A stretch of 58,462 nucleotides of DNA, filler included, from Dugesia japonica (lineage: Eukaryota), in NCBI GenBank assembly GCA_001938525.1. It is 5 parts of 5 records of this genome, joined end to end, with 100 filler letters (N's around TTAATTAATTAA, not from the genome) between each part and the next. Parts side by side here need not be neighbours in the genome. Positions count along the whole stretch, not along the records: positions 39,796 to 58,462 come from MQRL01645809.1; 4 more parts are not named here. One strand, given 5' to 3'. The position numbers and the translations under genes were made by a program. How positions within the stretch are numbered: position 1 is the first letter of the stretch; each line of letters starts with the position of its first letter. A model generated the notes under the pieces. It was not told where the DNA came from, ran no database searches, and saw nothing but the letters and a program-made list of their open reading frames with translations. This document shows positions 55,685-56,884 of this stretch, in pieces.

Positions 55685-56884
55685 ATGGATTTCAATTTTC
55701 AATTATCAATCAAGGAAGCTAGACTATTGATGGAAGACCCAGATATCGAATCATTCGTTATGAGCCAAGGACGGCAGGAAGTCAAGCAAACACCAGTGAC
55801 GCAAAATATAATGCACTACCGTAACAGATTTGCAGCACCAGAAAATTTCATTCGTCAAAGGGTGTGTTACAGCATAATGAAATTATTCGACGAAAAATAC
55901 CGCGATGAAAACACAAGAAGGGAATCGCTATCTAAATTACCTAAATATTTATACGGACTCATTGAGGCTCTAGCCAAATCGGGATTTTACTACGTTGGTA
56001 CCCAAGAACGACCAAATAAAGTAAAATGTATATATTGTAAAGGCATCCTTCACAAATGGGGCAGAAACGAGCAACCCAATAGAGCACATAGGAAGTGGTT
56101 TTCTACCTGTCCTTTCCTGATAAATGTAAATGTAAATAACAAATCTCAACTAACTAAAGGCAGAAAATCCGAAACCGAAAAAACAACGATGGAGCCAAAG
56201 AAGTTATATTGTGAAATCCTAAATAATCTAGCGGAGGTAGTATTGCCAGAGGACCTTGAATGGAATGTCGAAGAAAGAGAGAAAACATTCCAGGAGTTAC
56301 CAAACTTGAATGTAAAAAAAGCAATGGATGTATTATACCTAGTCCAACAAGCCAAGGACAAAGTTGTCAAATGTACCACGTGCAACAGAGAAACATTGAT
56401 ACTGAAAGGAATAGAACAATTACCAGCAACAATATTCCTCCAAGCAAAATGTTCAAGAGTAAATCAAATCGGTGAGGAAGAAGTAAAAGCGACAACTTGT
56501 AGAATAGAATGGAATATGTCTAGTAACATAATAGAAATGGCAGTTGAATTACAGACCAACCGGCTGTCTAATATTTTAAAGTTAAACCAGATAAATATCA
56601 AACAGCTATTAAAACAAACAGTGGCAGAGAAAGGAACCGAGTTAATCAAACCATATGAATTATATCAAAGATCGCTCTAATCGATAGAAACACAAGCAAA
56701 ATATGAACAAGAATGGGTATTGCTAGACCATGATTGCGTTATCTGCCTTGTAGAAACCATCGAGGTCATATTTCTACCATGCGGAAACTTTAAAACCTGC
56801 TATAATTGTGCCATAAACTTAAATGAATGCCCTATGTGCCAGACGTTAATTGAACAAAGGGTACTGGGAATAAAATTTCAATAA
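55685..56884 (+). pseudogene. iap: Inhibitor of apoptosis (IAP): BIR, degenerate BIR, C-terminal RING; one in-frame TAA at 56678
   Basis: TRRESL..LAKSGFYYVG..VKCIYC..LHKW..P..AHRKWFSTCPFL (CX2CX16HX6C); EREKTF..VKCTTC; after the stop CVICLVETIEVIFLPCGNFKTCYNCAINLNECPMCQ. Confidence 0.92.

Follow-up and report, generated by a model that had tools for sequence, protein, structure and literature searches.

A broken inhibitor-of-apoptosis cargo gene, conserved in its family, in a Burro-like Gypsy element of Dugesia japonica

Organisation of the element

The window analysed here, a stretch of 58,462 nucleotides of Dugesia japonica DNA with filler included (GCA_001938525.1), contains an LTR element whose segment 41000-58462 falls in the part taken from MQRL01645809.1 (positions 39,796 to 58,462). 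A gene for an inhibitor of apoptosis (IAP) lies among its 3' frames, and the features of the element can be listed as follows.

41000..41946, plus strand: 3' part of the 5' LTR, ending in CAACA, an inverted terminal match with the start of the 3' LTR
41954..41971, plus strand: primer-binding-site-like stretch, starting with TGG, 7 nt past the LTR end
44059..45052, plus strand: frameshifted gag; of its three CCHC-like knuckles the last is degenerate (Pfam)
45178..45636, plus strand: Bcl-2-like domain that shares the reading frame of the polyprotein (E 0.002 with Pfam Bcl-2, below cut-off)
45640..48102, plus strand: env, a mononegavirus-type fusion glycoprotein between gag and pol, with two internal stops
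48259..49065, plus strand: two tandem aspartyl-protease-like domains, with a stop in the second (Pfam)
49107..49523, plus strand: dUTPase-like domain (PF00692, E 5e-4, below the curated cut-off)
49587..52503, plus strand: reverse transcriptase, RNase H and integrase in Gypsy order, broken (Pfam)
52507..54781, plus strand: broken 3' coding stretch with at least 10 breaks (translation)
54927..55403, plus strand: accessory ORF of ~160 codons with an internal stop at 55086 (no Pfam family found)
55685..56884, plus strand: IAP gene of 399 codons, a pseudogene in the present copy
56982..57942, plus strand: accessory ORF, coiled-coil-like by eye, interrupted by a frameshift close to the 3' end (without a Pfam family)
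58185..58199, plus strand: purine-rich tract (13 of 15 purines), probably the polypurine tract, with 5 nt between it and the LTR
58205..58462, plus strand: start of the 3' LTR (TGTTG...), which continues beyond the window edge

One end of each LTR, an inverted match between the two, a primer-like site and a purine-rich tract are seen, and the LTR ends enclose an internal region of 16.3 kb (41947-58204). The 3' LTR opens with bases that mirror those at the end of the 5' LTR; the visible parts of the two LTRs have no common sequence, the remainder being hidden by an assembly gap upstream of the visible 5' part (40553-40659) and by the window edge. The primer-like stretch presumably resembles a tRNA-Pro site, and a tRNA scan of the window returned no tRNA gene with which to compare it. 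The purine-rich tract is not listed by a strict scan for at least nine consecutive purines. When contigs from public DNA runs were aligned to the element, depth was high at 41583-42165. An open frame of 118 codons (40989-41345) with no Pfam family lies upstream of where the 5' LTR ends, in the GC-richer part, and between the primer site and gag are purine-rich tandem repeats (42300-43430; units of ~25, 38 and 135-142 nt), where aligned depth is the highest in the element and length variants are numerous.

Gag is followed by protease, reverse transcriptase, RNase H and integrase, the order of Ty3/Gypsy elements. The Pfam matches behind this order are Retrotrans_gag (E 0.0077, below cut-off) and zf-CCHC (E 1.3e-4) in gag, whose knuckles were read off the translation, and RVT_1 (E 7e-7 and 4e-21), RT_RNaseH (8e-37), Integrase_H2C2 (1e-11) and rve (1e-13) in pol; env matches PF24664 Monjiviricetes_fusion at E 1e-77 and 1e-4. 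The Bcl-2-like domain is fainter. Its top Atlas matches belong to the Bcl-2 clan (0.91-0.92, low recognition), and the top Foldseek rows for its predicted fold (pLDDT 59) are Bcl-xL at a non-significant E of 0.36. With VIA-align, no Bcl-2 row was found for this fold among the 50 matches listed, and a sequence search of solved structures returned no match. Aligned depth drops over the tandem protease-like region (48579-49161) relative to its neighbours.

The 3' coding stretch at 52507-54781 (2.3 kb) gives no Pfam family above cut-off. It opens in the integrase frame and has a Thr-rich stretch, a hydrophobic segment and a basic tail at its end, and in its translated features it looks like a second membrane glycoprotein. 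Further, a 10-base AT-rich motif at 54800, 56900 and 57958 (also at 56130) sits 15-20 nt past the stops of three successive 3' frames, that of the IAP among them. This motif has 7 matches in the window against 1.4 expected, with none of 100 shuffles reaching 7, and may be a common 3'-end or spacer signal of the accessory genes. A bacterial promoter scan gave nothing informative.

From ~41 kb the plus strand is A-rich, with a GC content of 32-43% per kilobase compared with 26% in the flank, and the IAP shares this A-rich make-up and its strand with gag and pol. The original prediction placed the gene inside the element and upstream of the polypurine tract. The coordinates agree: integrase ends at 52503, one further ORF separates the IAP from the tract at 58185-58199, and the LTR begins at 58205.

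The flanking sequence contains two pieces of other mobile DNA on the minus strand. A 78-nt piece at 10014-10091, beside an assembly gap, is 85% like the 5' LTR end region (41853-41928) and is likely, judged by this similarity, to be a fragment of a related LTR, and a mariner-type transposase fragment lies at 34786-35427 (Pfam Transposase_1, E 4e-22). The four 100-base gaps that carry the same 12-base linker (10306-10405, 19035-19134, 29197-29296 and 39696-39795) are joins, so the flank need not be contiguous with the element.

The IAP gene of the present copy

Positions 55685-56884 form one colinear frame of 399 codons plus a terminal stop, in line with the original claim of a single frame with one stop before the RING. 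The parts of this frame are given below.

55898..56119, plus strand: intact BIR (residues 72-145), which groups with the penultimate BIRs of cellular IAPs
56270..56452, plus strand: variant second BIR (approximately residues 196-256), without the His of its relatives' CxxC-x18-H-x3-C
56498..56674, plus strand: UBA-like region (approximately residues 272-330), eroded here and clear in the relative P0003
56678..56680, plus strand: premature stop at codon 332, the sole internal stop of the IAP frame
56735..56839, plus strand: IAP-type RING (residues 351-385), with Asn368 at the His ligand

Pfam places the first BIR at residues 93-145 (E 2e-15, with the stop read through as X). It holds the four zinc ligands C115, C118, H135 and C142, spaced CxxC-x16-H-x6-C, and keeps the Trp residues found in solved BIRs. 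The predicted BIR-BIR layout stands for this unit and falls short for the second, which is non-canonical: the region draws no Pfam BIR match even at E 10 and no BLASTP match to the first BIR, and Leu252 occupies the place where both full-length relatives described below, P0003 and P0089, have His. On a profile of 448 BIR cores it nevertheless scores 10.9 bits, with 0 of 2000 shuffles as high. On the same profile the second unit of P0089 reaches 10.6 bits, above all shuffles, and that of P0003 3.2 bits (58 of 2000). A two-sequence BIR profile, which is a weak test, gave the present region 4.6 bits (21 of 2000 shuffles).

Between the second BIR and the RING lies a UBA-like region that had been overlooked. 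On a UBA profile built from 19 cellular regions P0003 scores 46 bits, P0089 1.9 bits and the present copy 1.5 bits (65 of 2000 shuffles), the last being not clearly above shuffles; Pfam names the matching region of the protein P0048 UBA_BIRC2-3. The RING is recognised by Pfam as C3HC4 (residues 349-391, E 5.5e-11) and aligns without gaps to the RINGs of XIAP and cIAP (E about 1e-9), the closest among solved structures, and the replacement of its His ligand, here Asn368, was correctly read in the original prediction. An in-frame C-terminal RING with all eight ligands is found in P0003 and P0089 and is missing from the present copy. A single-sequence fold of the IAP had a mean pLDDT of 34 and was unusable. 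Taken together, the order BIR, variant BIR, UBA-like region and RING follows that of cellular IAPs.

The lack of introns had been taken to indicate capture via RNA. The IAP frame contains no in-frame GT..AG intron of at least 30 nt that would remove the stop. Lack of introns is no proof of an RNA route, because genes carried by a retroelement or derived from a virus would be without introns anyway.

Relatives and origin of the IAP

An exhaustive protein search returned 4276 proteins at E 0.001, and the best 150 of these were examined. Among the best 150 of 4276, P0003 (483 residues, E 3e-68, 33% identity over 407 columns) and P0089 (403 residues, E 8e-25) match as a single long stretch. In both, the frame is uninterrupted, the RING His is present and the second unit reads CxxC-x18-H-x3-C. 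The present gene, P0003 and P0089 are 26-36% identical. Neither relative has an informative name, and the near matches that are named are animal IAPs. A candidate signature of the group, uniqueness of the CxxC-x18-H-x3-C spacing, was refuted: it occurs in 10 of the best 150 proteins, 8 of them other IAPs, and by this distribution reads as a natural BIR variant.

When the three-member group was compared with eight cellular IAPs using HHalign, the probability was 100 over 324 columns. The span covers the penultimate BIR, last BIR, UBA region and RING, so that the BIR-BIR-UBA-RING order is colinear with the host proteins. A tree built on few columns, from 56 BIRs of 25 chosen proteins, sets the intact BIR with the penultimate ones and apart from the last-BIR group (99/98). 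A quick tree of 24 chosen proteins separates the IAP, P0003 and P0089 from the others by a branch with SH-aLRT 97, and each of the three is flagged for a long branch and a biased composition. Both trees were made without any sequence identified as baculoviral.

Other searches added little. A word-indexed protein search with the 331-residue part gave no match and with the read-through form one distant IAP. No match to env was found among proteins of 932-2660 residues, a range outside which a Burro-size polyprotein falls. In viral contigs there was no confirmed relative of the IAP, env or P0089, and phage records gave no match. In metagenome contigs, the IAP of the present copy found no relative as a query. 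With the alignment as query, metagenome contigs gave 27 generic IAP loci, none of which matched the element parts compared with them (gag, Bcl-2-like domain, env, reverse transcriptase, RNase H, integrase, last ORF and variant BIR) at E 1e-4.

The best reading of these comparisons is that the gene would be of cellular origin. Its assignment to the layout of baculoviral IAPs, two BIRs plus a RING, is not supported: the protein runs parallel to the last four domains of cellular IAPs, from the penultimate BIR through the last BIR and UBA to the RING.

Other copies of the gene and decay of the present one

To gauge other copies, contigs of public DNA runs were aligned to the element (41000-58462). 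In three DNA runs, 21,769 to 33,156 contigs aligned, the largest class being 90-95% alike, and diverged contigs fill 30 of 30 bins. The three IAP bins have a summed depth of 932-6029, compared with ~4 for two listed pieces with 0-1 differences; summed depths of this kind are not copy numbers. Over 221 nt of the gene (56610-56830), two DNA runs gave 286 and 182 contigs, most of them less than 95% alike. The longest among the aligned pieces listed is 435 nt; linkage of the IAP to the element elsewhere is indicated by continuous coverage and one short junction, namely a contig with 35 differences that spans 56738-57007, from the RING through the spacer into the next ORF. These contigs support the view that the IAP is a multi-copy cargo of the LTR element.

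The original prediction also asked whether other copies have a sense codon at 56678 and His in the RING. This check comes out in favour of the prediction. In two runs, 77% (17 contigs) and 71% (16 contigs) of the depth over the first base of the stop is a letter with which no stop can begin, and the RING His codon differs from that of the window in all aligned depth (36 and 27 contigs). The remaining 23-29% of depth at the stop may mean that the stop is common to some copies. Taking differences in at least 30% of depth as variable places (32 listed), 23 of the 32 fall at third codon positions (p 9e-6), as do 20 of the 27 behind the stop (p 2e-5). Since there are copies open at the stop and a third-position bias, purifying selection acted on the gene of the family, which ran through into the RING. 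Over the RING itself the depth climbs to 29,748, compared with 358-1,606 before the stop, the RING start (56698-56785) being covered ~20 times as deeply as the sequence before the stop. This suggests a sister family that is more abundant and has a similar RING. The spike may also merely reflect that RINGs pass the 80% identity filter more easily.

The present copy is, most likely, a dead pseudogene in a decayed element. From gag to integrase at least 17 stops or frame changes occur in 2815 codons, and at this rate 2.4 breaks would be expected in the IAP, where one is seen (P 0.31); the gene is therefore decaying like its neighbours. A contig with zero differences spans three breaks at 54324-54506, so these breaks are real in the sequenced DNA, although that run may be the window's own source. 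Two zinc ligands of the IAP are lost, and the RING one, behind the stop, is private to the present copy. In one quarter of one RNA run, which is a weak test, 235 reads aligned on the element, none at least 99% alike, and depth over the IAP bins was 0-0.02. Two further RNA runs gave 0 reads on 56610-56830, a count that carries no weight as a test. From its sequence, the present copy could yield at most a RING-less protein of 331 residues. Activity of this copy, which the original prediction implied, is not supported, given the stop before the RING, the two missing zinc ligands and the breaks in gag and pol.

Comparison with known systems

Burro-1 (GYPSM1) to Burro-4 are giant Gypsy elements of Schmidtea mediterranea (Jurka 2007 and Grohme et al. 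2018, as cited in PMC6431247). The planarian Burro elements are described there as having a gag (with three knuckles in S. mediterranea), a BCL2-like domain, a mononegavirus-like env between gag and pol, a dUTPase between protease and reverse transcriptase, and motifs of BIR and ankyrin type, with GYPSM1 as the first case, in 2007; they are suggested to be integrated proviruses (PMC6431247). Burro1 is subject to PIWI control (PMC8532177). Further, Lee, Poulet, Allikka Parambil and van Wolfswinkel (2026, doi 10.1016/j.devcel.2026.03.001), as cited in PMC13465017, are reported to have found that B-IAP of Burro1, a BIR plus RING protein, shields stem cells from caspase-mediated death. Four more papers provide general background only (PMC11410931, PMC3124438, PMC10175614 and PMC13309565).

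The present element shares with Burro-1 to -4 the three-knuckle gag, the weak Bcl-2-like domain (E 0.002), the env between gag and pol, the dUTPase (E 5e-4, below cut-off) between protease and reverse transcriptase, the order reverse transcriptase-RNase H-integrase, and BIR cargo. In contrast to their internal regions of up to 25 kb (>30 kb in total), its internal region is 16.3 kb, and unlike Burro it has two protease-like domains. Matches to the Pfam families of MATH/TRAF, ankyrin, SUMO-like and midasin-like type were found in none of the 45 plus-strand open stretches of at least 55 codons in this decayed and fragmented copy. Similarly, its IAP resembles Burro1 B-IAP, as described in PMC13465017, in being a BIR plus RING protein aboard a Burro-type element, and differs from it in that the present copy is broken and showed no expression in the weak test of a quarter of one RNA run. 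The element works like a Burro and is likely to belong to a named Burro family. The family possibly has a name already; it is set beside Burro by published description. The novelty that the original prediction implied is not supported, BIR and BCL2 cargo in Burro elements having been published (PMC6431247).

Comparison with cellular IAPs that have three BIRs (XIAP, cIAP1/2, DIAP2 and invertebrate relatives) shows colinearity from the penultimate BIR to the RING. Unlike them, the protein has no first BIR, a remodelled last BIR and a short linker before the RING, and its gene is intronless and borne by a mobile element. Baculoviral IAPs such as Op-IAP3 and Cp-IAP3 have two canonical BIRs in ~270 residues and are not known to have a UBA. 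The present gene resembles them in being intronless, in having two BIR-type units and a C-terminal RING, and in residing in a genetic parasite; it is unlike them in its ~400 residues, its UBA-like region (weak in this copy, clear in P0003) and its one canonical BIR. The second of the two canonical BIRs of the baculovirus-type layout is not found here, and the relatives' second unit has altered spacing.

Interpretation

Very probably, the locus is a broken IAP cargo gene in a multi-copy, env-carrying Gypsy element of Burro order, which was likely captured from a cellular gene and which, when intact, likely blocked caspase-mediated death. The ancestral element would have packaged a processed transcript of a host IAP with three BIRs, UBA and RING, the last four domains of which would have been retained as a separate 3' ORF. 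Intact copies would express the IAP from this ORF; caspases or IAP antagonists would be held by its conserved BIR and ubiquitinated by the RING, with help from the UBA. This might allow cells to survive the stress of integration and of env expression. The Bcl-2-like domain of the polyprotein may act further upstream, so that apoptosis would be blocked at two levels. Caspase inhibition or E3 activity had been proposed for this gene from the start. The proposal gains, by analogy, from the anti-apoptotic role that is reported for the BIR plus RING protein of Burro1 (PMC13465017), and is not supported for the present, broken copy.

A tentative extension, which we regard as possible and not as probable, is that the element belongs to a compact, separate Burro-related lineage and its IAP to an old retroelement-borne subfamily whose second BIR was remodelled as a different zinc module for a new binding partner.

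Some observations could be accommodated by a different function, in which the protein of the family is mainly a ubiquitin ligase or signalling scaffold (innate immunity, NF-kB, turnover of antiviral factors) and affects cell death only indirectly. The last BIR is the usual antagonist-binding BIR in cellular IAPs, and it is remodelled in all three relatives; the RING, by depth, is the most widely shared part of the gene. However, the remaining BIR has the four ligands and the Trp residues of solved BIRs, the depth spike may reflect the 80% identity filter only, and the related Burro1 protein is reported to guard against caspase-mediated death (PMC13465017). We consider a ligase or scaffold function a serious minority possibility. 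The gene could also have come by way of a virus, such as a baculovirus, a nudivirus or some other large DNA virus, instead of straight from a host transcript, which we hold to be unlikely. The element evidently samples viral genes, its env being from a mononegavirus-like source, the top Atlas cluster is 63% viral among its few annotated members (score 0.92, low recognition), and the absence of introns suits either origin. Against this, the protein has a UBA-like region and baculoviral IAPs are not known to have a UBA, the named near matches are animal IAPs, and no relative was confirmed in viral contigs.

Two further readings concern the present copy. It might be kept by the host as a stable RING-less BIR protein, or its stop might be read through; a 331-codon frame with an intact BIR does survive, with fewer breaks than expected, non-significantly. 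Yet a single break fits the neutral expectation, two zinc ligands are gone, one of them behind the stop and private, and the quarter of one RNA run that was aligned, a weak test, gave 0 of 235 reads at least 99% alike and next to no depth over the IAP, which leaves retention by the host improbable. Finally, the IAP might be an independent processed pseudogene that landed in this single element, as no single contig joins it to pol (the longest among those listed being 435 nt). The hundreds of mostly diverged contigs on 221 nt, the diverged contig that continues into the next ORF, the match of strand and A-rich make-up with gag and pol, and the lack of a target-site or poly(A) signature at the 3' end of the IAP make a chance landing very improbable. 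Cargo of the element family, likely taken from a cellular gene, is therefore the reading we retain: a real IAP cargo gene, broken here and conserved in its family, in an element of a published kind.

Implications

With apoptosis inhibitors of their own on board, retrotransposons blur the boundary between transposon and virus, and in Burro1 such cargo is reported to be beneficial to host stem cells (PMC13465017). As the phenomenon is published and the present copy is dead, the gain from this window is incremental. It adds a smaller element of the same plan, with a strongly diverged IAP that is under purifying selection in its family, which means that IAP cargo stayed useful to the element long after its capture. 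It also offers a natural comparison with Burro1 B-IAP, in which one BIR and the RING are kept and the last BIR and UBA are drifting. If the element does represent a compact lineage with an old IAP subfamily, carriage of IAPs by env-bearing retrotransposons would be older and wider than Burro1, and possibly extend beyond planarians.
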